A stretch of 64,000 bases of DNA from Schizochytrium sp. TIO01 (taxonomy: Eukaryota; Protista; Bigyra: Labyrinthulomycetes), in contig SMSO01000014.1 in assembly GCA_004764695.1 (NCBI GenBank), positions 7,120,029 to 7,184,028 on the forward strand, in the 5' to 3' direction. Numbering within the stretch: the stretch's first letter is position 1; every line of letters starts with the position of its first letter. Made by a program: the position numbers and the translations under genes. Under the pieces are notes generated by a model. That model searched no databases. It was not told where the DNA came from and saw only the letters and a list, made by a program, of their open reading frames with translations. Shown one piece after another: positions 23,164-63,944 of this stretch.

Positions 23164-23204
<41 letters not shown>

Positions 23205-23806
23205 ACTTTAGTCGCTTCGGCGTAGTCTTGGGAGGGTCCAAGCAATGGAATTGGGCCCGGGACAAAGGAGTTAAGTAGCCACGAAAAGAGCACACGAGCG
23301 GTCCTTCCATTGCCAAATGCAAAGGGTTTGAGAAACAGGAACCTTGCTGTGAATTCTGTCGCAACGTGCAAAGCATCTTGCAATGCGGCGGCTTCTACAT
23401 CTTTTACATCTTGCTTTCCTGTGATCGAGAAAGGTGTGGTTTGGTATTTTATAATGAGATTCCTCAGTGCACGATCAAGAAGCCCAGGGGTTGGATGAAC
23501 AAGAGGAATTCTTGTCAAATCACAGGTAATTTGGTGACGCCTGAATGAGAATGCGGATGCACTTCGCAATTTGCTGCTGCTGTGGGGCTGGCCGAGGATG
23601 ATTGCGTTAAGTTTGCAGAGAAACGAAAAGGAAAGGCCGCCATCATAATGCATTGCGAACTTGTAAGCTTCAACGAGGTTGGTTCTGTTTTTTTCTTCGG
23701 TTTCCAGGGCTACTCGCTGTAAAAACCAAGTTATCAAGGGGCCGTTTTGCAGTTCGCAGCGACTCCTTGCTTCTCGCGCTAGTTCACTCAAGTCAAGGCC
23801 GGTCAT
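23048..23806 (-). CDS. Fic/Fido-domain protein with variant active-site motif
   Basis: FLFLKPFAFGNGRTARVL matches HPFx(D/E)GNGRxxR except H>K and D/E>F. Upstream LCKLNAIILG...KLR fits the Fido core. Poly-Ala comes from a (GCT)n tract. Confidence 0.8.
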
Positions 23807-23962
23807 TTTTCTGTTGTTGTTTTGTTTTGTTTGTAGATTTGCTTGGTTGATGAAAGAAGTGCAGAGAAAATTAAATTTGTTCGTTCTTCTTCTTGATTTG
23901 ACTATTTTCTAATGAATAAAAGCGCGTTGGTTTTTTTTGTTGCTTCCTTGTTATATATTAAA

Positions 23963-24403: not shown

Positions 24404-25679
24404 TTGTTTTCTGGGTCTGGTACGTTTGTTTTCTTCTTCTTGTTTTACTTCTACGTTTCTCTTGGGTTTGGGCCGGTTCTGTAGTGGATATGGCAACACA
24501 CGCGCAAAAAAGAATAACAGGGTCCCAACAATAAACAATTTTTGGTTTGGATCGTCGTCAATTTCGTCCTCTTTCCTCTCGCACACTTCGAAAGACTAGA
24601 TATGATATTGTTGTAGCTCTGCATAAAGGAGGGTGCAGGCTCCAACGAGACAGAGGTTGTGTGTTTGACCTCTCTTGATGTTTTCTAACCGTGAAAAGTC
24701 TTCAAACAAACTTGGGCCGATTGGAGTCCTGTCTACTTACCTATCTACAGATTTTGAGGTAGCAAAACACGATGAGGCAGTGCTGTTATCACAAGATCAT
24801 TATCCACCTCTTAACAAGAACACAGTTACGGAGGACTAATTTATTGAGTCCCTATTTCTTTCCGAGAACAAAACAAAGGAGAGAAGGGAGATAAGGAGGA
24901 ACAAGATTCGGAAATAATCAGACTTTATTCATTTGTTTTGGGCAGGCAGAACCCTTAAATTGCTAGCTTTCTATACCTCTCGAAGCTCAGGAGCAGGGAT
25001 GCGAGTGCATTGTTCTCTTGACAATCAATTGAAGTATAATAGCTAAGTGTGTACATAGGTATGTATCTATAAGTAGAACGTTCACCATCCCACTCGGACA
25101 AGATGGACCTTGCCAGCAGTTCCTGAATGTTAATGCTAACCATTCTTTTCCTTCATTCCTCTATCTACGCTATCTCTTGGTGAACGCCTCACGCTAACTT
25201 GCAATACAATTGCAGAATGCAAAGAAAATCTTTGCATCTAAAAGGACACCTAATAGGAATACTTTTCTTTTGGGGGCCAAGATAATCATTAGCTTATTTT
25301 CCAGATACACTGTCGAATAGGCAGAAAAACTTGTAGAAGGAGACAAATGTAATTTAAAATATTGCACAGGAGCTGAGCACAGCACAAATGGTTCGTCTGA
25401 AGTATCAAGTCCCAGAGGCTTGGCGAAAGCTATGGTGAAGCGTCTGCGACCACCTCATTGTCACTCTAGTCGATTTGCATACGAAATGGTGATCGGAATG
25501 AAAACTTTGCCCTGCATGCAAGTGATTTAGTCGATGAAAATAGGCGCCTTGCACGAGTGAACAAGCTCGCTGACGTATATCATGAGCATGCGTTCAAGGA
25601 GATTTAGACTCTGCACAATGATGTTGCCTGTTTTTTAGTTGTTCGAAAGGGAAAAACAGGAAGAAAAAAAAGGAAAAAA

Positions 25680-25797
25680 ACATTCAACACCGGGGCTTCG
25701 CATGCAGTCCCCTATCATACTACTGACCCGGCCCTACGCGACTTTACTTCTCAGTGCGAATGAGATGAGGTGTTACCCGCGTGGTATGATCGAATGT
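25680..25797 (-). rRNA. 5S rRNA
   Basis: Minus strand ACATTCGATCATACC...AGTAGTATGATAGGGGACT...GTTGAATGT, ~118 nt, terminal helix, followed by oligo-T terminators. Confidence 0.9.
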
Positions 25798-26256: not shown

Positions 26257-26333
26257 ATGTCAGACAACCCAGATGTTGTCTATGCCCTTGAAAAGCTTCA
26301 GAATGGCGCTACAACATTGAGGTAAGTTAACAC

Positions 26334-26410
<77 letters not shown>

Positions 26411-29400
26411 GGTAGTGGTTTGTTTTGTTGGATCGCAAGTTCATGCGATTGCTTGTTTCGTTGATTTATTGAGTATGCATCAATCGAAGAAACATCAAAA
26501 TGACAGCACAACAAAGGTGAAATCCTGAAAGCCAACCTAGATCACTCACGTCCATGCATGCACCTAATATAATGTATCATGTGTAATGTATTGCTGGCCA
26601 TCATTCAATCAAATCGACAGTCTTGAAGGCAACTGTATGGGCGACCATGACGCCAAGGCAGTGGCTGTGGCGCTGAAAGAGAACCGGTCGCTGACATCAC
26701 TTGAGTAAGTTGTCTACGCAACACCACAGTTCGTGGACTTGTTTGAACATGATGCTTGCTTTGTTATTTGGTGGGTGGGTCGGTGTTGTTTTCCAAGTTT
26801 ATGCAATCGCTTGTTTGTTTGATGGATGGATAAGTTGTCTATTTGACTGAGTATGCATTCATCGAACAGACAGCAAAATGACAACACAACAAAGATGAAA
26901 TCCTGAAAGCCAACCTAGATCACTCATGTCCCTGCATACATGCATGCATTTAATGCAATGTAATGTATTGCTTGCCATCATTGAATCAAATCGACAGTCT
27001 TGAGTATAACAATATTAGCGACGAGGGCGCTAAGGCAGTGGCTGCGGCGCTGAAAAAGAACCGGTCGCTGACATCACTTGAGTAAGTTGTTTTAGCAACA
27101 CCACAGCTCATGGACTTGTTTGTACATGATGCTTGCTTCGTTGGTTGTTATTTTGGTCGGTGTTGTTTTGCACGTTTATGGCAATCGGTCGTTTGATGGA
27201 TGGATGAATAAGTTGTCTTTTTGAGTGAGTATACATCCATGGAACAAAGAGCAAAATGACAACACAACAAAGATGAAATCTTGAAAGCCAACCTAGATCA
27301 CTCATGCCCCTGCATGCATGCCATGATTGACTCAAATCGACAGTCTTCAAAAAAACGAAATCGGCCCAGGGGGCGCCAAGGCATTGGCTGCGGCGCTGAA
27401 AAAGAACCGGTCGCTGAAATCACTTTAGTAAGTTGTCTTAGCAACACCACAGCTCATGGACTTGTTTGTACATGATGCTTGCTTCGTTGGTTGTTATTTT
27501 GGTCGGTGTTGTTTTGCACGTTTATGGCAATCGGTCGTTTGTTTGATGGATGGATAAGTTATTTGTTTGACGAAGTATACATCCATCGAACAAAGAGCAA
27601 AATGACAACACAACAAAGATGAAATCCTGAAAGCCAACCTAGATCACTCATGCCCCTGCATGCATGCCGTGATTGAATCAAATCGACAGTGTTTCTAACA
27701 ACAATATCGGCGAAGATGGCGCCAAGGCATTGGCTGCGGCGCTGAAAGAGAACCGGTCGCTGACATCACTTGTGTAAGTTGTCTTAGCAACACCACAGCT
27801 CATGGACTTGTTTGTACATGATGCTTGCTTCGTTGGTTGTTATTTTGGTTGGTGTTATTTTGCACGTGTATGGCAATCGGTTGTTTGTTTGATGGATGGA
27901 TAAGTTGTCTGTTTGACTGAGTATGCATCAATCGAAGAAACATCAAAATGACAGCACAACAAAGGTGAAATCCTGAAAGCCAACCTAGATCACTCACATT
28001 CATGCATCCATGCATCTTATGTAATGTGTAATGTATTGCTTGCCATCATTGAATCAAATCGACAGTCTTGACGTCAACAAGATTGGCTCAGAGGGGGGCA
28101 AGGCATTGGCTGCGGCGCTGAAAGAGAACCGGTCGCTGACAGAACTTGGGTAAGTTGTCCTAGTAACACCACAGCTCATGGATTTGTTTGAACATGATGC
28201 GTGCTTCTTTGGTTGTTATTTTGGTCGGTGTTGTTTTGCGAGTTTATGCAATCGCTTGTTTGTTTGATGGAAGGATAAGTTGTCTATTTGACTGAGTATG
28301 CATCCATCGAACAAAGGCCAAAATGACAGCACAACAAAGATGAAATCTTGAAAGCCAATCTAGATCACTCATGCCCATGCATGCATGCCGTGATTGAATC
28401 AAATCGACAGTCTTAATGGCAACGATATCAGCGTCGAGGGCGCCAAGGCATTGGCTGCGGCGCTGAAAGAGAACCGGTCGCTGACATCACTTTAGTAAGT
28501 TGTCTTAGCAACATCACAGCTCATGGGCTTGTTTGCACATGATTGCTTGGTTGGTTGTTATTTTGGTCGGTGTTCTTTTGCACGTGTATGGCAATCGGTT
28601 GTTTGTTTGATGGATGGATAAGTTGTCTGTTTGACTGAGTATGCATCAATCGAAGAAACATCAACATGACAGCACTACAAAGGTGAAATCCTGAAAGGCA
28701 ACCTAGATCACTCACGTCCATGAATGCACCTAATGTAATGTATCATGTGTAACGTATTGCTTGCCATCATTGAATCAAATCGACAGTCTTTATCGCAACG
28801 ATATCGGCGAAGATGGCGCCAAGGCATTGGTTGAGGCGCTGAAAGAGAACCGGTCGCTGACATTACTTTAGTAAGTTGTCTAAGCAATATCACAGCTCAT
28901 GGACTTGTTTGTACATGATGCTTGCTTCGTTGGTGTGTTATTTTGGTCGGTGTTGTTTTGCAAGTTTATGTAATCGATTGCTTGTTTGATGGAAGTTATC
29001 TGTTTGACTTAGTATGCATCCATCGAACAAAGATCAAAATGACAACACCACAAAGATGAACTACTGAAAGCCAACCGAAATAACTGACGTCCATGCATGC
29101 CTCTATCTAATGCAATATAATGTACTACTTGCGATCATTGAATCAAATCAAAAGTCTTGGAGGGAACAAACTCGGCGAAGATGGCGCCAAGGCAGTGGCT
29201 GCGGGGCTGAAAGAGAACCGGTCGCAGACATCACTTGTGTAAGTTGTCTAAGCAACACCACACCTCATGGACTTGTTTGTACATGATGCTTGCTTCGTTG
29301 GTGTGTTATTTTGGTCGGTGTTGTTTTGCAAGTTTATGTAAGCGCTTGTTTGTTTGGTGGGAAAAAAAGTTGTCTGTTTGACAGAGTATGCACCCGTCGA

Positions 29401-32400
29401 ATAAACAGCAAAATGACAACACAACAAAGATGAAATCCTGAAAGCCAACCTAGATCACTCACGTACATGCATGCATGCGTGCATCTAATGCAATGTAATA
29501 AAGTGCTTTCCATCATTGAATCAAATTGATAGTCTTTCTAACAACAATATCGGCGAAGATGGCGCCAAGGAAGTTGCTGCAGCGCTGAAAGAGAACCGGT
29601 CGCTGACATCACTTGAGTAAGTTGTCTAAGCAACACCACACCTCATGGACTTGTTTGTACATGATGCTTGCTTCGTTGGTGTGTTATTTTGGTCGGTGTT
29701 GTTTTGCAAGTTTATGTAAGCGCTTGTTTGTTTGGTGGGAAAAAAGTTTGTCTGTTTGACTGAGTATGCATCCACCGAACCAAGATCAAAATGACAAGAC
29801 AACAAAAATGAAATCCTGAAAGCCAACCTAGATCACTCACGTCCATGCATGCATGCGTGCATCTATTGCAATGTAATATAATGCTTTCCATCATTGAATC
29901 AAATCGACAGTCTTTCTGAAAACAAAATCGGCTCAGAGGGCGCCAAGGCATTGGCTGTGGCGCTGAAAGAGAACCGGTCGCTGGCATCACTTGTGTAAGT
30001 TGTCTAAGCAACACCACACCTCATGGACTTGTTTGTACATGATGCTTGCTTCGTTGGTGTGTTATTTTGGTCGGTGTTGTTTTGCAAGTTTATGTAAGCG
30101 CTTGTTTGTTTGGTGGGAAAAAAAGTTGTCTGTTTGACAGAGTATGCATCCGTCGAATAAACAGCAAAATGACAACACAACAAAGATGAAATCCTGAAAG
30201 CCAACCTAGATCACTCACGTCCATGCATGCATGCGTGCATCTATTGCAATGTAATATAATGCTTTCCATTATTGAATCAAATCGACAGTCTTTCTGAAAG
30301 CAAAATCGGCTCAGAGGGCGCCAAGGCATTGGCTGCGGCGCTGAAAGAGAACCGGTCGCTGACATCACTTGTGTAAGTTGTCTAAGCAACACCACACCTC
30401 ATGGACTTGTTTGTACATGATGCTTGCTTCGTTGGTGTGTTATTTTGGTCGGTGTTGTTTTGCAAGTTTATGTAAGCGCTTGTTTGTTTGGTGGGAAAAA
30501 AAGTTGTCTGTTTGACAGAGTATGCACCCGTCGAATAAACAGCAAAATGACAACACAACAAAGATGAAATCCTGAAAGCCAACCTAGATCACTCACGTCC
30601 ATGCATGCATACGTGCATCTATTGCAATGTAATATAATGCTTTCCATCATTGAATCAAATCGACAGTCTTTCTGAAAACAAAATCGGCTCAGAGGGCGCC
30701 AAGGCATTGGCTGTGGCGCTGAAAGAGAACCGGTCGCTGACATCACTTGTGTAAGTTGTCTAAGCAACACCACACCTCATGGACTTGTTTGTACATGATG
30801 CTTGCTTCGTTGGTGTGTTATTTTTGTCAGTGTTGTTTTGCAAGTTTATGTAAGCGCTTGTTTGTTTGATGGATGGATAAGTTGTCTGTTTGACCGAGCA
30901 TGCATCCATCGAATAAACAGCAAAATGACAACACAACAAAGATGAAATCCTGAAAGCCAACCTAGATCACTCACGTACATGCATGCATGCGTGCATCTAA
31001 TGCAATGTAATAAAATGCTTTCCATCATTGAATCAAATTGATAGTCTTTCTAACAACAATATCGGCGAAGATGGCGCCAAGGAAGTTGCTGCAGCGCTGA
31101 AAGAGAACCGGTCGCTGACATCACTTGAGTAAGTTGTTTTAGCAACACCACACCTCATGGACTTGTTTGCACATGATGCTTGGTTGGTTGGTTGTTATTT
31201 TGGTCGGTGTTGTTTTGCACGTTTATGGCAATCGGTTGTTTGTTTGATGGATGGATAAGTTGTCTGTTTGACTGAGTATGCATCGATCGAACGTACATCA
31301 AAATGACAACACAACAAAGATGAAATCCTGAAAGCCAACCTAGATCACTCACGTCCATGCATGCACCTAATGTAATGTATCATGTGTAATGTATTGCTTA
31401 CCATCATTGAATCAAATCGACAGTCTTCAAGACAACGATATCGGCGAAGATGGCGCCAAGGCAGTGGCTGTGGCACTGAAAGAGAACCGGTCGCTGACAT
31501 CACTCAAGTAAGTTGTCTAAGCAACATCGCAGCTCATGGACTTGTTTGTACAGGATGCTTGCTTTGTTGTTTGGTGGATGGGTCGGTGTTGTTTTGCAAG
31601 TTTATGGCAATCGGTTGTTTGTTTGATGGATGGATAAGTTGTCTATTTGACTGAACATGCATCCATCGAACGTACAGCAAGATGACAACACAACAAAGAT
31701 GAAATCCTGAAAGCCAACCTAGATTACTCACGTCCATGCATGCATGCATCGGATGCACTGTATTGTACTGCTTGCCATCATTCAATCAAATCGACAGTCT
31801 TGGGGGCAACCAGATCGGCTTAGAGTGCGCTAAGGCATTGGCTGCGGCATTGAAAGAGAATCGGTCCCTGGAGTCACTTGCGTAAGTTGTCTTAGCAACA
31901 CCACAGCTCATGGACTTGTTTGTACATGATGCTTGCTTTGTTGATGTGTTATTTTGGTCGGTGTTGTTTTGCAAGTTTATGCAATCGGTTGTTTGTTTGA
32001 TGGATGGATAAGTTATTTGTTTGACGAGGTATACATCCATCGAACAAAGAGCAAAATGACAACACAACAAAGATGAAATCCTGGAAGCCAACCTAGATCA
32101 CTCACGTTCATTCATGCATGCGTGCATCTATTGCATTGCAATGTAATGTATTGCTTGCCATCATTGAATCAAATCGACAGTCTTAGAAAAAACAATATCG
32201 GCTCAGAGGGGGCCAAGGAAGTTGCTGCAGCGCTGAAAGAGAACCGGTCGCTGACATCACTTGAGTAAGTTGTTTTAGCAACACCACACCTCATGGACTT
32301 GTTTGCACATGATGCTTGGTTGGTTGGTTGTTATTTTGGTCGGTGTTGTTTTGCACGTTTATGGCAATCGGTTGTTTGTTTGATGGATGGATAAGTTGTC

Positions 32401-34008
32401 TATTTGACTGAACATGCATCCATCGAACGTACAGCAAGATGACAACACAACAAAGATGAAATCCTGAAAGCCAACCTAGATCACTCACGTCCATGCATGC
32501 ACCTAATGTAATGTATCATGTGTAATGTATTGCTTACCATCATTGAATCAAATCGACAGTCTTCAAGACAACGATATCGGCGAAGATGGCGCCAAGGCAG
32601 TGGCTGTGGCACTGAAAGAGAACCGGTCGCTGACATCACTCAAGTAAGTTGTCTAAGCAACATCGCAGCTCATGGACTTGTTTGTACAGGATGCTTGCTT
32701 TGTTGTTTGGTGGATGGGTCGGTGTTGTTTTGCAAGTTTATGGCAATCGGTTGTTTGTTTGATGGATGGATAAGTTGTCTATTTGACTGAGCATGCATCC
32801 ATCGAACGTACAGCAAGATGACAACACAACAAAGGTGAAATCCTGAAAGCTAACCTAGATCACTCACGTACATGCATGCACCTAATGTAATGTATCATGT
32901 GTAACGTATTGCTTGCCATCATTGAATCAAATCGACAGTCTTTATCACAGCAATATTGGCGAGGAGGGCATCAAGGCGGTGGCTGCGGCACTGAAAGAGA
33001 ACCGGTCGCTGACATCACTTGAGTAAGTTGTCTTAGCAACACCACAGCTCATGGGCTTGTTTGTACATGATGCTTGCTTCGTTGGTTGTTATTTTGGTCG
33101 GTGTTGTTCTGCAAGTTTATGGCAATCAGTCGTTTGATGGATGGATGAATAAGTTGTCTGTTTGAGTGAGTATACATCCATGGAGCAAAGAGCAAAATGA
33201 CAACACAACAAAGATAAATGCTGAAAGCCAACCTAGATCACTCACGTCCATGCATGCATGCGTGCATCTATTGTAATATGTAACGTGTAATGTATTGCTT
33301 GCCATCATTCAATCAAATCGACAGTCTTAGTTGCATCTATATCGGCGACGAGGGCGCCAAGGCATTGGTTGCGGCGCTGAAAGAGAACCGGTCGCTGACA
33401 TCACTCAAGTAAGTTGTCTTAGCAATAGCTCGTGAACTGGTTTGTGCATGCGGCTTAGTTGGTTGGTTGCGTTGTGGGGCGTCTAGTGTGTTGTTTTACC
33501 AATGTTTTTTTTAACACTATTGCAAATTTGTTGTGGAATTGTTTGTTTGATTGGAGTGGATCCAACAGAGAGCACGATAACATCAGAAAATAAATGCAAC
33601 TGTACTGTCAATACTGTGGGTGCCTTTTAATGACGTGAACTGTTAACTGACGAACGGAGTTGATGTCATTTGGGTTTTACTGATATTAGTATATTCTGGA
33701 GAGCGGATGAAATGTACGAGGAGCTCGAATTGAATGAAAGTATTTATTCTGCAAAGACAAGAAGAAAAACGATTGAACAGATATCTTGTGAGCTTCGTTG
33801 TATACATGTTGTAAACGATGCACTTTCTCTGCCGTTTGCAGTGAAGCGTAGTCTTCTTACACAAACTTGGCCTGTTAACAGCTCTAATGAGCTGAGTTCA
33901 AAAGAGGACTACCTTGCTGCGCAGAAAGTAGAGCTTGATTTGCTGGAAGCTGCAAATGTTGCCTTTAGTGAAGCATTGGGATGTCTAGGCCCTTATATTT
34001 TTGAATAA
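26257..34008 (+). CDS. Spliced 21-exon leucine-rich-repeat protein (RI/NLRC3-type LRRs, one per exon), predicted 659 aa
   Basis: Exon 1 is 26257-26321 (MSDNPDVVYALEKLQNGATTL). Nineteen 84-nt exons start at 26621, 26998, 27344, 27690, 28066, 28411, 28787, 29155, 29533, 29911, 30289, 30667, 31045, 31424, 31798, 32181, 32560, 32939 and 33325, each AG|T...|GTAAGT and each encoding LxxNxIGxxGAKAxAxALKENRSLTSL. The last exon is 33690-34008 in matching phase 2. Total 1980 nt with no internal stop. Confidence 0.88.
26334..26410. repeat. (GCTT)n microsatellite in intron 1 of the LRR gene
   Basis: Directly visible perfect tetranucleotide run. Confidence 0.95.
26411..33425. repeat. Tandem array of 19 intron+exon units, period 345-386 bp (mode 378), lying between a 5S gene and the rDNA unit
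   Basis: Periods measured between exon starts. Conserved intron blocks such as ATCCTGAAAGCCAACCTAGATCACTCA and GAATCAAATCGACAG. Confidence 0.97.
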
Positions 34009-48300: not shown

Positions 48301-50492
48301 GAACTCATAAAGGAATTTTTGTTTCAAAAACACATTTCGCGAGAGCACCCCCTAAAATATAAAGAAACAGCTATCGAACGATTTGCAACTTAATCTTTGA
48401 CAGTGATGTGTTTGGGAGAAAGCTGTGTGCAAAGTCCCAGTAAAGGATTCGTAGGCAATCATTTATTTGCCACAATTGATATGTTTCAAAATACTTCAAA
48501 ATTTGCAGTCATCGTACAGATTCAAAAGAAAAGAAGAAACTCTCTCCCCAGTTCAGGAAGAAGTAGTAGAAGATCCTGTGCGGCCAAAACATGTAATATC
48601 TTGCTTTGACGGTAGTGCAGGTAAAGTTGTTGCTGGGCAAGCATTGTTCTCATTAGTATAATTGCAAGTTCTAATTTATACGCTAAGGAAGAGAATTCTT
48701 CAACTAATCTTCTAGATAGATTAAACTATATTCTGCATTTTCGTTTCTGTAGTCAAGTGTGGGAAGAGTAAAGGAGAAGCATCAGAACTTGAATCAAATC
48801 ATGGACAACTGCTCCAGGCGTTCCGACCGTGCGGAGGTGGAGCATAGTGGGTGGTGCGCTTGGCCTAGCAAAGATGCTGGCTTGTCTACCTGCGCTTGTA
48901 GGTTGCCTCCGGTTCCTTCTGGCTTACCGCCGAACGAACGATGATGAGATCTGACCACAGCAAACTTGGCTCTGCGATACTTCGACGAGGCTCGAGCTCC
49001 TGCCAGCACCGCTGCTTTGGCAAGATGGGTCTCTGTCTCCGCCAGCGAGCACAGTGTTAAGTGCTAAGCTTTGATTCTCAATTATAGGAGGTGCTTACGC
49101 CTCAGAAAGGTCTGTGAAACAAGTGAGGTCTTGTTGGAGAATCAGCTGTCCACCTGAAAGGAGGTCTGGCACCAAGCCTAAACCATGGCCTCTGGGATAA
49201 AGGAATCAATGCTGGGTCACAAGCCTGGTCATTCTCACAATGCGGCTGTTTTGCTCATTGATACATTTTTTGTAAAATTCGCCGCTGACGAGAGTAATGA
49301 ACAATTATTCACAAACACGAGCGACTTCACGGGTCACAAAAATATTCAAAGTGCTCTGCACATTTTGGCTAGGATAATAGCAATGGGAGACTTTATGAAT
49401 AAAAGGTTTTTTAATATGGTTCATCTACAGTGTAGAACCTTTCACCACATAAGCAATTACCGCGGTGACAATTGCAAATATTAAAAGTGGCTATGAACTC
49501 CGCAGTGCATTCAATTGGTCCATATGTAGATGCCATTTTCCTGCATTGTCGTTCGCACTGAGCTGTGCACGAAAAGCAGTCAACTGAACATTGGAATTCT
49601 ACTGTTGCGACAATAACAACGTTCTATTGAATTTTACGCTAGCTAGGTCATGGCTTTGGTTTATTGGTCTAATGAATATGTTCCTTGTAGTAGGTATCTG
49701 CCGAAGTACCAATACTAACTTAGTTTAGGGAAAATGAAACATAAAATGTTGTACATCACCAGATGGCCAACGTTTCTCCTCTCAAAAACCCAGATCAATT
49801 CAGGTCGCTGGATCATTGAATTTAGAATTTCTGATACCTATCTTTGTTTCGAATTATAGTAAATTAAACACGGTTGTCTTCAGGGAAGCTACTGAAAATT
49901 TCATTTCTTTAAATCTGCTGCTGAAGGGTATCTTTAACATGTACAACTTTTGTGCTGTTACCTTGAGCCCGCCACCTGGGGCAAAGGGAGAAGAGAAAAA
50001 GTGAAGCCTCGGGCAAACGAATGGCGCTTCAAATGAACAATATAACTCGATTGATAGCGGCGATGAGAATGATATTTGTAAAGCAAGTACGACCTTTTTC
50101 TGTGGAACCTCTATTCATTTTACCGAGATCTTAAAGTTGTACTTTTCATTTGTTTCTGCAAACGTACTTTCCAGATGATGCAGTTACTGACCATGGCTTC
50201 CCCAAGTAAATCACCGATTGATGCAAAGTAAGTTCGATTCTTTATCTCTTTGTGTCTATTCTTAATTCGAATTTTTTAATGCATTGCAAAAAACAGGATA
50301 CACCAATCTTGTGATTCCCTATGATTTTATTACTCAGGAATACTAATAGTGTGTCATCGATACCAGTACGTATGACAAAATTGAAGAAAATTGACCCTGC
50401 TTTGAATGATAAACTAATATTTTTGCTCAATTATTAGTGATTCATATAAAAAATGAGTGGCTTGAAAGGGGGAGGAAAGCAAAAAAAAAAAA

Positions 50493-50610
50493 ACATTCAA
50501 CACCGGAGCTTCGCATGCAGTCCCCTATCATACTACTGACCCGGCCCTACGCGACTTTACTTCTCAGTGCGAATGAGATGAGGTGTTACCCGCGTGGTAT
50601 GATCGAATGT
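50493..50610 (-). rRNA. 5S rRNA (second copy)
   Basis: Near-identical to 25680-25797 (one visible substitution, CGGAGC vs CGGGGC), with a T-run terminator. Confidence 0.9.
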
Positions 50611-50694: not shown

Positions 50695-50916
50695 TATTGA
50701 AGTAGTATACAGCTACTGCCTAACCTAACCTAACCTAACCAAGCCCTCATGTCCGACACATCCTGTGTATCGGACTGACATCATACATTCATCCCTGCCT
50801 GTATCCAGACCCGAAACCCCAATAACTCATATATCATCCTCTTTCTCTTTCTCATGAGTTCGCCATCCTTGTCAGACTACCTCTGCACGCTCCACAGCAC
50901 AAGCTACTCTGCAATA
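50695..50916 (+). mobile_element. Solo LTR of a Ty1/copia family with 5-bp target-site duplication
   Basis: Termini TATTG...CAATA; GGTAT on both sides (50690-50694 and 50917-50921); diverged reverse complement of 57176-57408, which abuts the copia pol remnant. Confidence 0.85.
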
Positions 50917-51099
50917 GGTATCTTTTCTTCGAGTTTCTCTGGCCTGTCACAAACACAGAAGATCCCTCTTAGGCTTCTGCTATGGAGTAATTTGTTTTAC
51001 TTTGTTGAAGTACAAGTTGATGTCTCGTAGCAGCAATGTTGGTAAACAACAAGTCTAGTATTATATTCGAACAGAAACATATAACACAAACTAACATAT

Positions 51100-51990
51100 T
51101 CGACAAGTGCTGAATTTGCTTTTCAGATAGACACTCCTGAGAAGAGAAACTGACAAAGCACTACGTCATGACTTTGCAAGGCTCAGAGAAACACCTTTTT
51201 GACCGATGCTATCAGTCATGTGACTATTACAGGGAATGAAGGGAACGAAGCAAGCCTCAAAATAAGTTTCCAAGGCAATTTGTAAGCGAATCCAAATCAA
51301 CCCGATTCGATCCCAATCGATTGAACTAAACCATAGTTATCCAAGACAAACATTAACTCTAGCCTCAACAATAAGTAACCACAAGAAACTACGATGCTTC
51401 CTCAATCGCCCTTAAGCAATCGCAACCACGTTTCATTCAAACACATTAAATATAAGATTAGGAGAGTTCCAGGTCCTTTAGCCTCCTGATTGAGTTGAAG
51501 TTCGTGCCTTTCGAGCAATCGATTATTTCATTCTGTGAATTTTGCAAATGTTGTCTATGGTTAAGAAATGCATCGTTATTCTTGCGTAGCACAAGCATCC
51601 AACATGTTTGAGAATTTCTGAAGTTGTCTTGCATAAGTTATTTTTATAAGTCGTTGCTTTGGTCTAGCTTGCAAAATTTAAGTGGGTACAGAAATTTTCT
51701 TCTTCAAATGAATTGAAGGTAGACTACTTTGTAGCAACTTTCATTAGTTTCTTGCGCAGATCAGAAAACAAGCTTGAAAATCAGCACTAATTAGTTCAAT
51801 TGTACAGCTTCCATTCCTGTTTCAAAATGAAAAATTGAAATTCCTCGCCAAAATATGTTCCTTTGAATGTCACCGATATAGTTTGCGCCTCTCCTTTTGA
51901 ACACTCTTTATTTCATAGATGTAGAACACTCTACAATCAGGATTCATTCCAACAGCTGTATTTTCCCCAAGTGATAACAACGAGCTCGCT
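51100..51990. repeat. Diverged direct duplication, copy 1 (copy 2 at ~56315-56975)
   Basis: Shared collinear blocks, e.g. GACACT-CTGAGAAG...ACTACGTCATGACTT, AGCAATCGATTATTT, CCGATATAGTT and CAGGATTCATTC. Confidence 0.75.
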
Positions 51991-53682: not shown

Positions 53683-53884
53683 GCTGATGATATTCCTGCT
53701 GCCTCCTATAGTGAAGTGGCTGCTTAGTTAACTCAGCCCAACCGTGCCATGGCTCAGCATCTTGGCGCTGGTTTTGTCTATGTCGAAGCGCTTCTAGCCG
53801 AACTGGCGAATACCCGCAAGTCAGCTGGGGAACCGACTTGACCAAATACCCCCCAATGCTTTCCGCATTTTCTCTAGCGAGGTC

Positions 53885-55582
53885 ATGCAGGAGATGGAAA
53901 CCTACGTTCGCTACATGAGCGGTAACCAGCAAATCGTCTTCGAACTTGGGGATGGTAAAATGTATCTTTGGGCAGGATTGGGGATGCGTCTGATTAATGA
54001 TCTGACGAGCTTACCTGTTGACTCCCACACTGAAACTCGTCCAGGTACAGCAATATTGCCTTGGGCTCTTGAGTTTCTCGAACTTCGTGAATGGGCTATG
54101 ACGTCATTTCAAGAAGAGATCATCGACAAAGTAATCAGTACAGGGGTTGGCTCCCTCGATGACCGATCTCTTCTAGTTGGTCGGAGTAGCTTTTCAATTC
54201 CAGAGCCTCTGAATATTCAATCCAAAGAACCTACCATCCGATATAATCTCGCCAATTTCTGCTGCATACCCATTGAGAAGGTTTGCAAGGCTAAATCTTC
54301 CTTTGGCATGTCCGATATTGATAGTGATGTTGAGCGAACAAATGGAGTTGGGTCTCGCAGCGATATTACAATTTCCTTTGGGAAAATTGCTTATTTGGTG
54401 ATTGAGGCCAAGAAGCCTCTCGACGTTGTAACGATCTTCCAGTCACCGAATTCGTTTTCTCGTGCCGCGACTGCCTCCATGTCGAATCAAAATAATTTAA
54501 ATGAACATGCTCTTGCTGGACTTCAACAACTCTTCAGCTACATGGTAACGCGCAGCCTCAGATTTGGGGTCTATACAACCCACGAATTTACTTACTTCCT
54601 TAAGCGAGACAACAAAGGCACTCTTTTTATTACTCCACCAATAAGTGGTTTCTCGAGGGGCGCGTCTCGTCCAGACGATGACACAATTACAGCCAATCGG
54701 GCATTGTTTGCACTCTTGTTCTGTCTAAAACATGGACTCGTCGAGGATGCCATTGAGTATTTTCCATCTGATGATAGTGCAAATGTTGACGAAGCTAATT
54801 TTTTCATCCACTGTGCAGAAAGTTACGGTGACGAGAGACTAGATAGTGAGAACTCTGACAAAGTCAATGCATTACCAGGTCAGGCCGGGAAATAATTTTT
54901 TGAGAAAATCAGTGATTACCATTAGCACGCGTCACTAGAATTTCCGAAGGATCTCGAGATTAAACGCAGAAGATTTTTAGATCTGCTTCCCCTTGATGAG
55001 AATCATTTTAGTATGCCACTACCGTGGAAATCTACATTCCAATTTGTACGTGCAGGAAATTTGGCAGACACTGCACGCATTTCAAACGCAATTGGTGGCG
55101 CGCGTGATGTGTACGTCAAAACCTTTGTTATTCACACCTCTCACGATGTTGACGAGATCAATCGTCAGTTGCAGCATTTCCTGAAGGAGATTGACTTTTA
55201 TAATGGTCCTTTGCGTGCTCTCCAAGGAATTGCAGTTCCTTTTCTCGTTTATGTAGGACACTTTCATCAACGACCAACGATCGCTACGACGAATTCGGGT
55301 ATACATCCAACTAGTCTCATGCTTGATAGGCATCCGTGGATTATAGATCGGGCTGTGGAGTCACTTCAACTTATCCATGCAGCTGGTGTTTTACATGGAG
55401 ACATTGCAGACCGAAATATTGCTTTTGATGCAGATGCAGGCATGGTTCACTTTATTGATTTTGGCGAAGCAAAGACGATGCCAGGTACTGATTCTTTGGC
55501 TGTAGTTGAAAAGGAGAAAGAGTTAGCAACCCTTATGGAGGATTTTGAAATGATGGCTCCACCCAATCAAACGCCTAAGTAA
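53885..55582 (+). pseudogene. PD-(D/E)xK nuclease-like + atypical kinase gene interrupted by two in-frame stops
   Basis: SD...VIEAKK, QQLFSYM, LQGIAVPFL, HGDIADRNI and FIDFG. ORFs 53885-54895 and 55013-55582 share a frame, separated by TAA (54893) and TAG (54923). Confidence 0.75.
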
Positions 55583-56314
55583 CGGAGAGTTGAACCGTCA
55601 GATAGTAAGTATTAACAAATTGCAGTGCTGTCACTTTATCAGTTGTTGACGATTTCCATGATAACTGTCTTCTACGTTGGCACCAGGCTAGCCTATAGAA
55701 GCTAACAATGTCGATTTGCTCTTAAGGGTCTGCCAAAATGTTGTAAAGTTCTCACTTGCAGGGATCTGAATCAGGTGGTGCAACCCAATGAACGCCGCAG
55801 TTCTCCGCCATCACTTCAACTGTGTTGCTCGTTTACCATCGAATGGCTGGAGCGAATGTCAGACTGGCTGGCGTTAGAGGAATCTCAGATTAAGTGCCAG
55901 GAGCTGAAACTGCCTCGGACAGACCCGTCGAGGGTTGTCGCACCTGTCATTTAAGCGATTGTTGAAATCAAGGCAACTTATCCAACATAAGTATCATTCT
56001 TGTTAGACCAGCAGGCATTACCCGACCCCATGAGACAATGAAGGGAACACGGTGGCCACCTTCATAAAGGGACCATTTACCAGCACGAAGACCAGCGGCA
56101 GGGAACATGTTTTACTTGGCTCAAGAATCGTAGTCTTAGGACCATTGTCTCTTGTTGCCACATTTAATGTGTCCTCGGCAATATTCCAACGCACGAGTAT
56201 GTTAAGTAGGTGACTGGGCCGGTAGTCGAGCTCTTCAGTCGCATTAACGTAGGTTGCATCTTTGTTATAACCAGAATCGGGGTGGTTTGCGGAGCCACAG
56301 GCTAACTTTCTCAA

Positions 56315-56975
56315 CAAGTGATGAATGTCTGTTTTAGATTGACACTACTGAGAAGGAGAAACTGACACATTACTACGTCATGACTTCGTAAGGCTCAAAG
56401 GAAGACCTTCATGACCAGACCATGGTGAAGCGTCAGTCAACATAGTGATGCGTCTATGTCAGGGAACGAAGAGGACGAAGCAAGCCTGAAAATGAGTTTG
56501 CAAGGTAATCCGACAAGATTAGCAAAGCTGTAGGTCCTCTACTCTCTTGGTTGACCTTTCAAGCAATCGATTATTTATTCTGTGAATATTACAAATCTTG
56601 AGTGCATAGTTAAGAAATGCCTCATGTTTCTTTCCCAAGCACTAAATTATCTGACATGATTGAGAATTTCCAAAGCTGTCTTGTACAGGTTAATGGTTAT
56701 AAGTAGTTGTTTTAGTTTAGTTTGCATAGTTTTAAATAAATACATTTAGAAAAAAAAAAATTACACTGTTTTTTGTTGTGGTGTTTCAGTTCTGTGCTAG
56801 AAGGAAAGGTGACACTTGTTCACCTAACGATTTCCTTTGCGTGTCCGAATCTCGCCGATATAGTTCGACTCTCTCCTACTAATCATTCTTCCTTTCACAG
56901 ATGCAAGAAACACTCTACGTTCAGGATTCATTCAAGCAGCTGTGTATCTCCTGGAAAACCACAACAAGCTAATTT
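56315..56975. repeat. Diverged direct duplication, copy 2
   Basis: Collinear similarity to ~51100-51990. Confidence 0.75.
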
Positions 56976-57175
56976 CCTATGCTGGAGACAAGAAAGAAAG
57001 TTACTGGGTGCTACTATTCCTAATGAGTTAACCACCTGGTTATAATATCTAGTGTTACAAAGTTGAATATAATGAGAAGTGCGTTTTAAAACTAATAAAG
57101 GGACTACCCAAACACGGCTGTGGCTGTGTACACACATGGTCTCAGCTGCTTTAAAACTGACTCGAACAATAACCT

Positions 57176-60060
57176 TATTGCAGATTAGCCTGTGCTGTGA
57201 AGCGTGGAGAGGTAGTCTGACAAGGATGACGAACTCAGGAGAAAAAGAAAGAGGATGATGTATGAGTTATCGGGGTTTCAGGTCTGGATACAGGCAGGAA
57301 TGAATGTATGAATGTCAGTCCAATACACAGTATGTGTCGGACATGAGAGCTTGGTTAGGTTAGGTTAGGTTAGGTGAGGTTAGGCAGTAGCTGTATATTA
57401 CTTCAATATGTTCATTCACAGAGTCGTCAGGATGATCACTTAACTCTTTGAGAATAAATGGAGTTTTAGTGCCATTGCAAATTTCCATATTACATCGTCT
57501 AAGGGCTTTTTCACAATACTCTCGTTGGCTAATGGTACAGATCTTTTGTGACTTGTCATAGACATGTGTGTCACTAAGATAATGACATTGTTTTTCACGG
57601 TAACTTTGACGCCGATATTTTGTTCGAGTTATTCGACAATCGCTTTTAGTGCTTGGGGAGTGCCAAAGATTCTCATGTCATCAACATTGATAGTCATTAG
57701 AAGATCTTTGCCAATAAAGAGTAATGCATCCGTTATGGATCGTGTTAAGCCATAATTTTCTAAGATAGCTGTCAAATGATTCATCCGCCTACGGGGGGTA
57801 CGGGGGGGCACTTTTGAGTCCATACTGACTTTGACGCAGACGATAACAATATCCTTCTGCTAAGTCAAGACCTTCAATACCTTTGATGTAGAGGAATTCG
57901 TCATCTGGAATTTGTGCTTCTAGAAATGCAGCTGTTACATCAACGGTGATAGCATAATAACCTCTCGTTAAAGCAATAATTGTTGCGACACGAATGCTTT
58001 CAGCATTAACTGTTGGTGAGTATATATCATAAACATGTTCAATGACCTCATTGTAGCCTTGTACTACAACCCGTGCGTTTAACAGATTGACCGGTGCTGT
58101 CTTCTTTGTGTAGACACATCTAGTTAACATTACAGTCTGTCCCTGTGGTAAAGTGTGTAAGGGTACAGTTTCCAGAACACCAGCGGACTGCAGATTGTGA
58201 TGTCCAGTAGTCATAGCAGCAATCCATAGTTGCTGATATGCATGTGGCAGTTTCCGCATCTCTTTATAGGTATTTGGAACTACAATGTCGTCATATGGAC
58301 ATGGTTTTGGAACCGGTTTAGTTAATTGTTTATGTTCTGTGTTGTTTATAACAAGAAAAGCAAAAAGTCCCTGTTCCCTCGGATGTATCGTGGGAATGAT
58401 TAGTTTATGTGAGGTCTCTTCCTTTGATAGAGAATTTATATCCGAGAAATCTAACTCTGTATTCGTCATATTACGTTTTCGTTTCAGACGATTGGTATAG
58501 TATCGGTATTTATTTGCAGCGCCTTTGGCACTGGGACCAAGATTTAGTGGTACATAAGATTTGGGAGTCCTTTTGGATCTCCGATGACTACCGTGTGCAT
58601 GGACTGAACTATGTTCGAGTTCCATGTCTTCACGAGCATTTTCACTATTGGATTCACGGTCATCATTATACTGTGGGGTATTAGTAGTGATAAAGGATTT
58701 AGTGCTATTAACTGTGGAGGGTAAAGCAGGTAGTTCCTGATATATTTCTCCGTCAATCAATTTATTTGATTCTTCACGTGTCCAATGAGTAATTAGATAA
58801 GGTGCCAGAACGGTTTCTAGCGACATTGTACGCTGGCGAGTTTGCTTGATCGAAAACCTTGACTGCACGCGTTTGAAGAATGTTGAACTTGTCTTTGGAT
58901 AAGACGTGTACAGTTCCATGAGTGTAATCATTAGCATATCCAAGGAAAATGCCTAGTCCACCCCTATCTTCCAACTTTCGTGGAATAGGAAACTTCTTGA
59001 AAACACATGGTGCTCCAAAACGGTGGAAGTAGCTGTAGTCTGGTGCTTTGCCAAAGTGTCGTTCATACGGAGACTTCCGATTGCGACTGGAAGCTATGCG
59101 ATATTGATATGTACAGCATGAGATAAATCATATGGCCAATATTTGGCTCCGAGTAATGCAGTTTTTAGGTTGGAGCGAAGACGATTCATAAGTACTTGAT
59201 TGATGCCTTCGGCAGGATTTGTAGCATGAGAATGCGGTGCAGATAGTTCATGTTTCCACCGTATGGTGTAAAGTAATCTTGCAAATTCTCCGCTTGTGAA
59301 GTATTTAGCTCCGTCTGTTCTAATGTTAATGCGCGAGCTGTTTTTACCTTTAAGCCATGTTTGGGCAAACATACGAAGGACATTGACACTTGATCCGTGG
59401 ATTGTATGGAATAAACGTAGGTAAAGTCTGAGTAAAGATCTCTGTAGACTATAGCATATTTGAACTTGTTGGGGACGCCTACAACGTGGAATGGTCTCAT
59501 CACATCAGCTGTAACAGCTTGTCGAGTAGACTTAGCATATGGTGTGTGAGGTCCTTTTGTCACTGGAATACGTTCAAAGTTGGCAAGTTTACAATCCAAG
59601 CATAGAAAATCGATTTGTGATGCTGAAACTCCTAGGGAGGACGCTATGCGTGGAATTGAAGCCTGACCTAATTTAAGGTGAGCGTCTAGCCAATCGATTA
59701 CTTTATAACTGAGTTTTTGTGTTTTCCGTAGTTGCAGAGCATTGACTTTGGGTGCTTTTACAGGAATAAGCATTGGAAAGTCGGATTGCTGACCGAGTGA
59801 AATAACTTCTCCATGTGGAGTGGTCATACGGTCGCTATCCTTTGAGAAGAAAAATGAAAATCCTTGCTGAGTCATAATAGACTGCTGAGATCTCCAATCG
59901 AAGGAACTAGTGGACAAGACATTGCTAGAGTTCTTGGTGTCCTTTTGTAAAACCCCATTAGACATAAGGTTTACGATATAGCAAGAGTAGGCAACCAGAC
60001 TCATGTGGCAGCCAGAGCCAAGAACTTGAAGTGTGAATACACATTACCTACATCCAAGCA
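57176..60060 (-). mobile_element. Degenerate Ty1/copia LTR retrotransposon (integrase then RT fragments, 3' LTR at 57176-57408)
   Basis: GAG-pre-integrase H..LG..CLDC; integrase TAD..PF, IRTDGA, P..H..N.AE..N; LGIFLGY; RT NARVVVQGY, YSPTV, DVTAAFL, YGLKS and NVDDM. Domain order INT-RT is copia-type. Multiple frameshifts; gag, RNase H and 5' LTR were not seen. Confidence 0.9.
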
Positions 60061-60647
60061 TGGTGTAACTTGAGTCGATGGTTCGAGAGGTTGAACTAAC
60101 CTAACCCCATCGATTATCTCTAACTACTTTCAAGGATGTCTTAATCTCCCTAAGTACTATATGAATCCATCTGCCCTGGAATCCATTCTCCAGGACAGCA
60201 GTTTGCTAACACAAATCAACCTTCTTATAACCTTCATCAAGCTTCTTGTCTTCATCTTTACAGTTAACCTCACGCTAACCAGTATCACCTTCCAGCAAAT
60301 ACCTTGCGGCGTTGTTGAATGAACTATCGAAGGAGCGGAGAGAGTAAGACTAAGAAAGAATTTGTACCTGATCATAAACTTAATAGGTTCCTCAACCTGG
60401 GAAAATAAAGTTAAAAAAGCATATATATCATCTGTCAAATGTTAACGAATCATTACACTGTTCTAAATTATGTTTAATTTATGTTAAGTTTTAGTATGTC
60501 CCCTCACCAAGAACCTTGCGGAAAAAAACCATTATAAATTTTGATCCTGTTGGCAGATGCCGTTACTATCTGGAGGAAAGCAATTGGTTTTTTGCCTTCT
60601 AGTCAACGGCGCTTAAGCAAAAGATAATCATTAAAAATTCGATTAGT

Positions 60648-63600
60648 TCATTCCAATCCAAAGTTTGCGCCAACAATATCTGGTGTTAGCAAAGGTGACA
60701 ATAAGTCTTTCAGAACGAGTCGAAGATTTCTATCCTGAATTTGTGCATTCCAGTACTCACGCAAACGTTCTGCGCGGAGCAACTGCCACGCCTTACGAAC
60801 CTGCTCAAATGAAACAGCGAAAAATGGATCTTGCCCAATTCTTCTTGAACAGGTTCTCACATGATCATGACAAGCATCTTCATCCTTAGAACTGTAGCCA
60901 AGACACCAAGCGCAGAAGTAATGACCCAAAATCTCATTACCACACTCTACAGCACAACAACCGTCAAATCTATATACAAAAGCATCGCAGTTATTGCAGT
61001 TCGGACAACATGTGCTCATAATATTCTCTTGAATATGAAGTAAATGTCGCTGTGCGTCACTGTTCTGTTCACCTGCACGTAGAACTTGTGCTATGCGCCT
61101 TTAGATCTCCTTCTCCGCCCAAACTGCTGCTTCATTTTCTGCCTTCATCTTCGCAATCAACAATAGGTGATTCAAAGCAGTTGGTGCAAGACGGGTGATT
61201 TCTTGACCTGATATCCTTCCACTACATTCAGGTTTCATGCATGCCATTGTTCCATCAGCATCCAATCTTACGTTAGCAAGTGGTTGTGCCGCCGCTTCTA
61301 CTGCAGTTTCGATACAGTCTCTGCAAAGAAAGTCTCCCTCCTCGCAGCTTGTGCCCTCAGAAAGCAGATGCTTCTCCATACATACTAGACATATCTTGAC
61401 AGGGATCTTAGGAGCTCCAAAAGCTTCATGTTGAAGTGCTTGGCGAGCGGTTGGACGCTGCCTAGGGTCTGTTGCTGTAAGAGCATCGATAAGTTTCTGC
61501 ATTGCAGCGGTTCGCTCAGTAGGATACAGCTCCTTTAAGCTTATGCCCACAGAGTACATGTCCATCGCTGTTTCAAACTTATCTACAGGCCTATTCTGCA
61601 ACTCGGGGGCAACGTACTGTGGTGTTGCCTGAAGTGATGTGTAATTTGCATTGTAGTCTGCATTCTTGATGCCGTCAATGTCGCCGATCAATGGTGTCCC
61701 GTTGCTTGTGAGGAAAATGTTTTCTGGTTTGATGTCACAATGCACAATGCCGTGGGTATGCAAATCCGCCACGCCGATGAGCAGGCCCACAGCAAGTCGG
61801 TCGCGTGCTGCTTTGCCTTCGCTAGGATGACTCTCAATCCACTTGGCAAGGTCACCTTGCTCATAGAAAGGCATGACAATACAACCACGTGGTTCTCCAT
61901 TAGAAGTATCCACAAAAGCGCCAGTGATACGTATCACGTGCTGAGACACCACGTTTCCCATATTTGCAGCTTGCCTGTAAAAGGCTTTGGATTGACTTGG
62001 ATGCCCAAGCTGAAACTCTTTGAGAACCATAGTTTTACCGTCTCCATCCAATACTTTCTGGGCTCTCTTGCCAACTCTGGAAGCAAGGGGCTCGCCGACA
62101 GGCTTGAAGTCTGCGACTGTGACATTCGCCAACCAAAGGTCTGAACATGCTACTTCAAAAACACCCTCTGCACTTACGTGAAGCCTTTCCTGCCAGGCTC
62201 TATCTTGCAGCAACTCTGGATAATGTTCCTGCGCGTGTTGCAGAGTCTCAGCTAGCTTATGACGAAAAGCTTTGCTAAGATCGATAGGGTTGCCTTGAGA
62301 GAGAATGAGCTCTTGCTTTTTGATACGATTTCTAAAATATGCTTGATCTTCCTCATCTAATTCCTCTATTTCAAGTTCTTCTTTGGCTCTCTTCAAAATT
62401 TCTGTGGCTTTCCTCGACTTGTCAAGTTTCTGGTATAATTCTTCAACATCTGAGACAGAATGTTCTTTCAAACCCAGTACTACATAGTCATATAGATTAG
62501 AGAGCTCTTTTGGTGTGTAATTACTCGCGTCATTCAACGTAGCACTCTCAGAGTATCCTTCAAATCGAGCAAATGTTGAACTTATTGCGCAAAGTATCTT
62601 GGACAAATGGGCACTAAGAGTATCTTCATGGAGGACTTCGAGCTCTTCCTTGAGAGCACTCTCAAGTTCAGATAACTCGGGTTCTAGCTCCATGGCCTGC
62701 TCAGGTGTTCTCAGGGCAACCGATAATCCATCACCAAGTTCTAGCTCAGACAATCGAGAGGTAACGCGCTTTATAGCTTGTTGGCTTCGTTCGCCAATAT
62801 TGTTGGGTCGGCCTTCTCCACTCCTCTCGTACCCTTCCCTGCATTGGACAGCCTGAGCAATGAGTTCTTGGCACTGTTTGAAGTCATCTGTGCTGGTCTC
62901 TTCATCGACTGGAGCAAGGTTGATGTTTAAATCGTTTACCAAACTTTCAACTTTCACTTTGAATTCTCGCACTGCGCTCTCATCACTTTCGCAAAGGTTG
63001 GCACGAACCCATGGGTACACTACCTGCAGAAGTGAATGCAGGCGACATCGTTCGGCATTCCGCTTTTCGATGAGACTGGGCAAGCCATCAGCAGAGCTTG
63101 CACGAATCTGGCCTTGTAGCGCGTCAAGACTCTCTTTGGAGTTCTTGATGTCAGCGGAAACCTGTCGCAACTTCACTTGGCCAAAGTAGCCCTGAATCGC
63201 CGATCCTACGAATTCCTCAAGCAAGGCAATCCCAGTTTGCAGGGAGTTTCCTCTGACCCCGCCTCGATCCGCGCGCAAGTCTGAGACTTTCTTGGCAAGC
63301 TGCACCACATCAGCGAAACTCACACTCGCTCCATCCGGCCGTTCTCTGAGGCGAACAAGAAGACGTAAGCAAACCAGCAAAAAACGAGGTTGAAGCAGTA
63401 ATAAAGGCAGAAGCAAAAGTTAGGATTCCCTATATCTCAATAACACAATTCGAATAATTACACGATCCCAAACAAAGACTGACCGCATGAACTTACCCAG
63501 ATCCATCCAAAGTAGCAAGCCCGGCGCCATCAACGCCGTCTTGCTCGTTCTTGGGCTCTGCAGAAGGCTTGCTTTCTGCCGACTCTATGGAGGCACAGGA

Positions 63601-63944
63601 ATCGGTGTCTGACGAGGAATCGGCAATCTCCTCTCTAGGAGAATCCTCAGAATAGTCCGGATCCATCTCATCTTCATAAAAACAACTGCGGCGTTTTGTA
63701 AACGAATGTGAATAAACGAAAGAAGAGAATAAAAGCGTCTGTCAGAAAAACGATGAAAGCATGTAAAGACGGCCTCGCAAGTCCATGGAGACATGGAGAG
63801 AACCAGCGAAGGCAAGGCTCTGCGCAAGCTGAGAACAGCAGCAGAGGCAACGAAACTTACTAGATACTAACAGACGGACATGTTTTTCTCAGAGACTTTG
63901 CGACGGCCTTTGCGCCCTCACCGCCAATGTTGTTTTGCCAAAGA
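60648..63944 (-). CDS. LRR - coiled-coil - Ser/Thr kinase - RING/RBR-like protein (5' end outside window; one in-frame TAA at 61101-61103)
   Basis: 84-nt LRR exon 63944-63861 (LWQNNIGGEGAKAVAKSLRKTCPSVSI), acidic exon 63685-63497, large exon from 63345; all GTAAGT/CAG phase-2 junctions. Kinase VLKEF, HCDIKPENI, TPQYVAPE, DMYSVG and RPTA. Cys-rich CLVC...CRDC...CMKPEC, then in the same frame after the TAA, CPNC...FDGCCAVEC...FCAWC. Confidence 0.8.

Follow-up and report, generated by a model that had tools for sequence, protein, structure and literature searches.

A likely multi-copy thraustochytrid gene family joining leucine-rich repeats and a kinase to a predicted ubiquitin ligase module without an IBR

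The minus-strand gene at positions 60648 to 63944 of the window (the whole 64,000-nucleotide stretch of Schizochytrium sp. TIO01 DNA analyzed here) is a spliced gene from a multi-copy, likely thraustochytrid family. Its paralogs join leucine-rich repeat (LRR) exons to a kinase and to two zinc fingers, a RING1 and an Rcat-like finger, that are conserved together and have no IBR between them. The copy in the window carries an in-frame stop between the two fingers. We estimate a probability of about 0.62 that the family works as a sensor coupled to an IBR-less ligase in the manner proposed below and that this copy has lost its output.

Gene structure and splicing in the family

The most upstream exon of the gene within the window encodes an RNI-type LRR in 84 nt; it is preceded by an acceptor CAG and succeeded by a donor GTAAGT, as the first-pass annotation had read it (Table 1). 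The last exon spans 2.7 kb up to the normal stop and codes for a long helical region followed by a kinase and two clusters, the first of Cys and RING1-like, the second of Cys/His. The start of this exon had been placed correctly, but the length of 2.2 kb then given to it reaches only to the premature stop.

Table 1. Features of the target gene and of its surroundings in the window
Feature	Position	Strand	Basis
5S rRNA gene	25679..25797	-	sequence
Neighboring LRR gene: short first exon, 19 consecutive 84-nt exons, 105-aa tail	26257..34008	+	sequence
Single 18S-5.8S-28S rDNA unit	37748..43269	+	window
C-terminal helices of module and normal stop (60650-60648)	60648..60848	-	models, mean pLDDT 91.5 and 89.7
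Rcat-like zinc finger, candidate catalytic Cys at 60959-60957	60849..61007	-	alignment, profile
Premature in-frame TAA (CAA/Gln in other copies)	61101..61103	-	translation; G on + strand in runs
RBR-type RING1	61220..61395	-	profile matches and structure comparison
Non-RD kinase domain, HCD motif	61420..62110	-	Pkinase E 8e-29 and motif survey
Predicted helical/coiled-coil region opening last exon	62110..63345	-	sequence character; alignable to P0001 and P0002
Intron, 151 nt, GT-AG, phase 2	63346..63496	-	skipped exactly in 4 of 4 likely-RNA runs
Acidic Ser/Asp/Glu-rich linker exon, 189 nt	63497..63685	-	sequence
Intron, 175 nt, GT-AG, phase 2	63686..63860	-	sequence
84-nt phase-2 LRR exon, last (capping) repeat; array likely extends past 64000	63861..63944	-	sequence

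Among 24 matching public sequencing runs, 8 were compared at 85% likeness, 4 of them DNA and 4, from three studies, that we guess to be RNA (likely-RNA runs). The exact copy was found in no public run (best share of words, 0.39), and the compared contigs are paralogs or come from other or related strains. A joint between 63345 and 63497 with CT..AC ends was present in paralog contigs of all four likely-RNA runs and was absent among the 15 joints listed for the four DNA runs, for which 10 more exist. In run X16, the joint 63643/63861 uses the donor downstream of the LRR exon, and in run X18, two joints of equal depth (168.8), probably from one contig, connect the LRR, acidic, and kinase exons. 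A complete MMETSP cDNA (P0164/P0165; 1,240 aa in a single ORF) contains LRRs, a Ser/acidic linker, a helical region, a kinase, and the module, with matches to LRR_6 and Pkinase. Together, the X18 joints and this cDNA join the LRR exon to the kinase exon at the family level, in agreement with the phase-2 splicing and with the fusion of LRR, kinase, and ligase that had been read from this gene.

Loose ends at 63934 led into an upstream LRR exon in the likely-RNA runs (KNLQTL-Y-LHR, hand translation) and into an intron plus an AG acceptor in the DNA runs. They support further spliced LRR exons upstream and thus, indirectly, the expectation that more of them lie beyond position 64000. At its end, the target LRR exon is like the final repeat of P0006 and P0015, which makes it the capping repeat of another LRR subfamily than that of the neighboring gene. 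The difference between P0006 and P0162, two assemblies within one cluster, is exactly one repeat of 28 residues; it may reflect exon skipping, an allele, or assembly collapse.

The kinase sequence of the window exon matches Pkinase (Pfam, E 8e-29), and its DFG position reads DID at 61682-61674, a reading that the first-pass annotation had already made. DFD is found in 30 of 41 family motifs, and 35 of 41 are non-RD. The VAIK Lys and the catalytic Asp are present, and Gln occupies, in 6 of 6 sequences shown, the site where the alphaC Glu is expected (a site placed by consensus). Judged by these motifs, the kinase is atypical across the family.

A RING1 and an Rcat-like finger without an IBR

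A module query of 260 residues searched against 1.84 billion representatives returned 814 matches at an E value of ≤0.001, not all of them IBR-less, and 129 at ≤1e-10. Both fingers were strongly conserved in an alignment of 138 matches covering the module, with the candidate catalytic Cys, part of a Gly-Cys motif, kept in 136 and the end of the module lying 40 aa or less from the C terminus in 110. The linker between the fingers, which is all-helical in the predicted model, has a median length of 76 aa (42 to 86) and contains 0 to 3 Cys in the 127 sequences in which it could be measured, too few for an IBR. Pfam gave no match on the window module, and a PDB sequence search with the single module returned nothing significant.

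The best match of the module profile was RNF216 (E 5e-7), followed by parkin (1e-6), the significance coming mainly from RING1. In the AlphaFold model of the module (mean pLDDT, 91.5; pTM, 0.69), RNF216 8eb0 was the sole PDB match obtained with Foldseek at an E value of ≤0.001 (1.6e-5); among viral models, an uncharacterized Pyramimonas orientalis virus protein ranked first (8e-11), followed by giant-virus RNF216-like proteins. By structure comparison (VIA), RING1 scored Z 7.4 against the RNF144-type RING1 1wim (rmsd 3.4, 89 aligned) and Z 6.3 to 7.4 against the RING1 domains of RNF144-type proteins, parkin, HOIL-1, and ARIH2. The conserved Cys of the second finger aligns with the RNF216 position that 7m4m shows as Cys and the 8eb0 transthiolation construct as Ala, and with the active site of parkin. 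The RBR-like ligase proposed for this gene is therefore upheld in its RING1 and its Rcat-like Cys, but not as a canonical RBR, since the IBR is absent. From its sequence, the module likely works like an RBR while falling outside the RBR definition, and ubiquitin ligase activity is predicted for it.

Several features could also suit a non-catalytic zinc- or ubiquitin-binding module with an IBR-like second finger, which would make the family LRR-kinase scaffolds rather than transthiolating ligases. His was found at +2 from the Cys in 0 of 137 sequences with a residue there (Ala in 125), and RNF216 and HOIL-1 likewise have no His two residues past their catalytic Cys; RNF216 is active without it, according to passages of PMC7458406, and that of HOIL-1 is supplied from elsewhere, according to passages of PMC9853177. 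The second finger folded alone (model mean pLDDT, 89.7) gave no Foldseek match at an E value of ≤0.001, and its comparison with RNF216 stood at rank 30 (Z 4.3, rmsd 4.2, 108 aligned). Of 101 relatives, 7 have weak IBR-family Pfam matches below the curated cut-offs, and in P0090, P0104, and P0131 these lie on the second finger. Against such a role stands the near-invariant Cys, which lies beyond the expected zinc-ligand pattern, at the catalytic position of an Rcat, and in register with the active sites of RNF216 and parkin. We thus regard non-catalytic scaffolds as unlikely and favor a transthiolating ligase.

An architecture scan took in 101 of the 105 matches of at least 400 residues, with four bacterial kinases and the shorter matches set aside. 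When the top five Pfam families of each relative were considered, 46 carried a kinase, 9 an SF1 helicase, 8 ankyrins, 5 LRRs, 4 a DEAH helicase, and 3 a ubiquitin-like domain; some of the four DEAH-helicase relatives are probably ordinary RBR-helicases. The module is widespread in protists and stands there behind a variety of domains (LRR, ankyrin, WD40, ubiquitin-like, helicase). The close LRR relatives P0006, P0015, and P0296 have no kinase. In a 34-row tree, the window module belongs to an 8-row clade (100/100) of kinase-bearing and kinase-less LRR forms, nested in a 16-row clade (99/98) with ankyrin-kinase forms of Hondaea fermentalgiana. Different sensors are thus swapped onto a single output, with the kinase optional. 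The idea of exchangeable LRR sensors and outputs thus gains support from module swapping across LRR, ankyrin, WD40, and helicase forms but not from the two window genes, whose LRR subfamilies differ.

Among named relatives, Hondaea proteins and MMETSP0958-0961 transcripts come closest; the taxon id printed with them, 87120, belongs to a fungus and is probably a transposition of 87102, Aurantiochytrium limacinum. A metagenome search returned three unrelated kinase loci of about 30% identity, and a search with the LRRs only returned generic RNI-type proteins, with the module motif in none of the newly listed matches. P0123 was considered as a fusion of the module to an E2 and rejected, as Trp takes the place of the expected catalytic Cys in its E2-like domain.

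In the mechanism that we propose for intact members of the family, the LRR solenoid, built with one repeat per exon, would bind a target, and the helical region and non-RD kinase would act as a switch or scaffold. RING1 would recruit E2~ubiquitin, the ubiquitin would be loaded onto the conserved Cys of the Rcat-like finger, which lies across the helical linker of ∼76 residues, and it would then be transferred to the LRR-bound target. Without an IBR, the module has no canonical site for allosteric ubiquitin, which would leave regulation to the N-terminal domains fused to it. Recombination at chromosome ends would vary the number and sequence of the repeats and give rise to broken copies like the one in the window.

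An in-frame stop in the window copy

The TAA between RING1 and the second finger had been overlooked in the first-pass annotation, which described the RING1-like and RING2/Rcat-like Cys clusters as one ligase module. Both clusters are present, but the stop leaves the Rcat-like part unfused in this copy. The last exon is open for 747 codons before the TAA, and the frame past it stays open for 150 codons to the normal stop. The plus-strand base at 61103 is G (giving CAA, Gln) over the whole depth in seven runs and over 7142.7 of 7192.7 in the eighth, and protein homologues mostly have Gln at this position. DID, a 9-nt insertion, and a Cys-to-Leu change of a ligand (60929-60927), the latter two in the second finger, are private to this copy; in addition, the His ligand of RING1 is Asp (61334-61332), as in P0001. 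Of 38 conserved sites past the stop, 3 are changed, compared with 0 to 5 in intact homologues; this excess is not significant, and changes ahead of the stop are no commoner than in homologues. This copy is probably a decaying paralog, with an in-frame stop ahead of the predicted catalytic finger.

Two ways of reading through the TAA were considered and rejected. An intron that removes it would have to use 1 of 39 in-frame GT..AG pairs, of which the 5 with a good donor all delete part of RING1 and a conserved helix, and the homologues, which have Gln there, align collinearly. Reassignment of the stop codon was ruled out, as other long ORFs of the window terminate normally under the standard code.

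Subtelomeric sequence present in many copies is difficult to polish, almost no compared contig carries the stop base, and the frame is otherwise open across 2.7 kb, all of which would fit an error of assembly or consensus in an intact copy. The rarity of the stop base is, however, expected when the exact copy is in no compared run, and an error at one base would account neither for the further private, non-conservative changes (DID, the 9-nt insertion, and Cys-to-Leu) nor for the decay of neighbors in the window (the split REase-kinase and the copia remnant). We consider such an error quite improbable. It is very improbable, in our view, that the copy makes a truncated LRR-coil-kinase-RING1 product that serves as a decoy or regulator or as a simple RING-type ligase. 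A stop in the last exon could let the transcript escape decay, and both the 747 open codons and the ordinary rate of change ahead of the stop are in keeping with such a product; yet its RING1 would be minus a His ligand, its kinase reads DID, and the stop is the majority base in none of the eight compared runs. A decaying paralog is the reading that we retain, and this copy, probably broken, matters mainly as a sign of turnover.

Repeat arrays, probable chromosome-end setting, and known systems

The first-pass annotation had recognized a shared LRR exon format between the target gene and the gene with a short C-terminal tail at 33690. The format is indeed common to both, since the target exon, like all 19 array exons of the neighboring gene, is open, in phase 2, and 84 nt long. 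The sequence subfamily is not: the target exon shares 49 to 58% DNA identity with the 19 exons at 26.6 to 33.4 kb, which average 82% among themselves. The units of the array measure 345 to 386 bp with a period of 378, and all 19 have GT-AG ends, with introns of 10 different lengths (261 to 302 nt). At three variable positions, picked after variability had been seen, pN was 0.62 versus a pS of 0.40, and on the helical side the values were 0.09 versus 0.12. The 105-aa tail of the neighboring gene had no Pfam, homologue, or Atlas match, which are weak negatives.

A second 5S copy lies at 50492-50610, and the window holds short TTAGG tracts, a REase-kinase interrupted by stops, and what remains of a copia element. 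In the parts of bioRxiv 10.1101/2023.06.15.545109 used here, telomeres of A. limacinum are TTAGG, and its chromosome ends carry 5S, Group 0 LORE-TEARS of ∼385 bp, and then 18S-28S, the LORE-TEARS being treated as spacers without GenBank similarity. The order in the window (5S, ∼380-bp repeats, 18S-28S) matches this published Aurantiochytrium subtelomere scheme, except for the tandem repeat that the scheme places after 28S, which does not follow the 28S here. There is no telomere within the 64 kb either. The genes likely sit at chromosome ends, to judge from this order.

Like the Group 0 LORE-TEARS, the 378-bp-period array lies between 5S and 18S; unlike spacers, every one of its units contains an 84-nt LRR exon that is open and has kept its splice sites. 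Matched by position and unit length, the array of the neighboring gene probably corresponds to Group 0 LORE-TEARS. It is possible, at somewhat less than even odds, that other LORE-TEARS groups, the array lying upstream of the target gene perhaps among them, are LRR arrays too. Leucine, LRR, kinase, and ubiquitin are unmentioned in the main text of the LORE-TEARS preprint (10.1101/2023.06.15.545109), and the supplements of PMC12221091 gave no match for NLRC3, leucine-rich repeat, or IBR. The literature searched, mostly outside the subscription journals, held no account of an IBR-less module or of thraustochytrid subtelomeric LRR exon arrays.

The variable repeats, the turnover, the likely subtelomeric site, and the parallels in Tetrahymena and Ectocarpus (in the sections consulted of PMC6564038 and PMC3341825) suggest a possible role in defense. 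On the fullest reading, which we hold tentatively and think rather doubtful, LORE-TEARS would be LRR exon arrays of recombining subtelomeric receptors, many of them signaling via transthiolating IBR-less RING1-Rcat E3s, a minimal and previously undescribed two-finger class common to protists and some giant viruses; they would form a variable recognize-and-ubiquitinate defense in a virus-bearing unicell. If the ∼380-bp subtelomeric repeats of Aurantiochytrium are LRR arrays, what was published as an element of chromosome maintenance would turn into a candidate for a variable repertoire of receptors, and this in an industrially used organism that is persistently infected by a mirusvirus. The module, if genuine, would annotate several hundred unnamed protist proteins, and a natural and widespread RING1-Rcat without an IBR would make the need for an IBR directly testable.

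Animal NLRs have 84-nt LRR exons, and their RNI-like LRRs of 28 residues (NLRC3/NOD type; Pfam LRR_6) are like those of the window gene. The window exons and the complete cDNA P0164 have no NACHT or NB-ARC in Pfam, and the LRRs are N-terminal; the window gene is therefore not an NLR, and the NLR-like repertoire envisaged in the first-pass annotation is not borne out.

Further parallels are the Tetrahymena LRR genes with 90-bp exons (PMC6564038) and the Ectocarpus ROCO and LRR-kinase genes with 72-nt exons (PMC3341825). As far as the sections consulted describe them, these also have one LRR per exon in tandem exon-intron units, a varying number of repeats, and kinase fusions, and those of Tetrahymena share the phase-2 introns; kinase-fused LRR exon arrays are thus already known in ciliates and brown algae. 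The window exons differ in being 84 nt long and RNI-type, in having an RBR-derived module as part of the output, and in being set among rDNA units.

With RNF216, parkin, HHARI, and HOIL-1, the module shares an RBR-type RING1 followed by a helix and a helix-preceded Rcat-like finger with a Gly-Cys motif. In the passages cited of PMC7458406, all RBRs have RING1-IBR-RING2, with an allosteric ubiquitin site at RING1/IBR, and the IBR is regarded as part of their catalytic core and allosteric site. The module, in contrast, has no IBR, carries the motifs F-x-D-F-x-G-C-x-A and H-x-H-V-x-x-C of its own, and is fused to LRR, ankyrin, kinase, or helicase domains.

The IBR-less module in helicases, and a viral structural match

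Relatives of the C-terminal module of the target gene, a RING1 plus Rcat-like finger that lacks an IBR and is predicted to act as a ubiquitin ligase, were scanned against Pfam (101 of the 105 of at least 400 residues, four bacterial kinases being omitted). Nine large SF1 helicases, presumably Upf1/ZNFX1-like, terminate in this module (P0047, P0049, P0062, P0103, P0106, P0107, P0113, P0126, and P0141). Proteins of this architecture possibly constitute a group of RNA-sensing ligases. The top viral structural match to the module was an uncharacterized protein of Pyramimonas orientalis virus (BFVD A0A7M3UPC4, E = 8e-11, 248 columns).

Other ORFs, repeats, and mobile-element remains

The layout of the three restriction endonuclease (REase)-like ORFs listed below looks Crinkler-like; the third matches HSDR_N (6e-4) and is interrupted by in-frame stops. 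The RlmJ-like family is known chiefly from bacteria. The duplicated segments have their first 240 bp inverted, with 87% identity and internal (TTAGG)4 tracts. The Ty1/copia remnant adjoins the target gene on its downstream side, and a related piece lies at 15248-15532.

Further features of the window
Feature	Position	Strand	E-value
REase-like + atypical kinase fusion ORF, by appearance	15790-18000	-
REase-like + atypical kinase fusion ORF, by appearance	20491-22944	+
REase-like + atypical kinase fusion ORF, by appearance	53798-55579	+
Fic-domain ORF	23051-23908	-	3e-5
RlmJ-like rRNA methyltransferase	12213-13178	-	4e-31
Duplicated segments	50695-51959 and 56296-57408
Tandem array, 285-bp unit	1955-2964
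327-bp triple repeat within acidic 626-codon ORF	3633-4605
Decayed Ty1/copia element	57790-60170	-	2e-16 (RVT_2)

The LRR exon array and its rDNA surroundings

Across the 19 LRR exons of the neighboring gene (26621-33408), variation was clustered at a few positions and at the junction codon, and introns were more alike (88%, ungapped columns) than exons (82%). Between 25679 and 50610, a 5S gene (minus strand) is followed by this array, one rDNA unit (plus strand), and a second 5S gene. This is the published order at Aurantiochytrium chromosome ends, with the LRR array occupying the place of the "Group 0 LORE-TEARS," ∼385-bp units between 5S and 18S (bioRxiv 10.1101/2023.06.15.545109).
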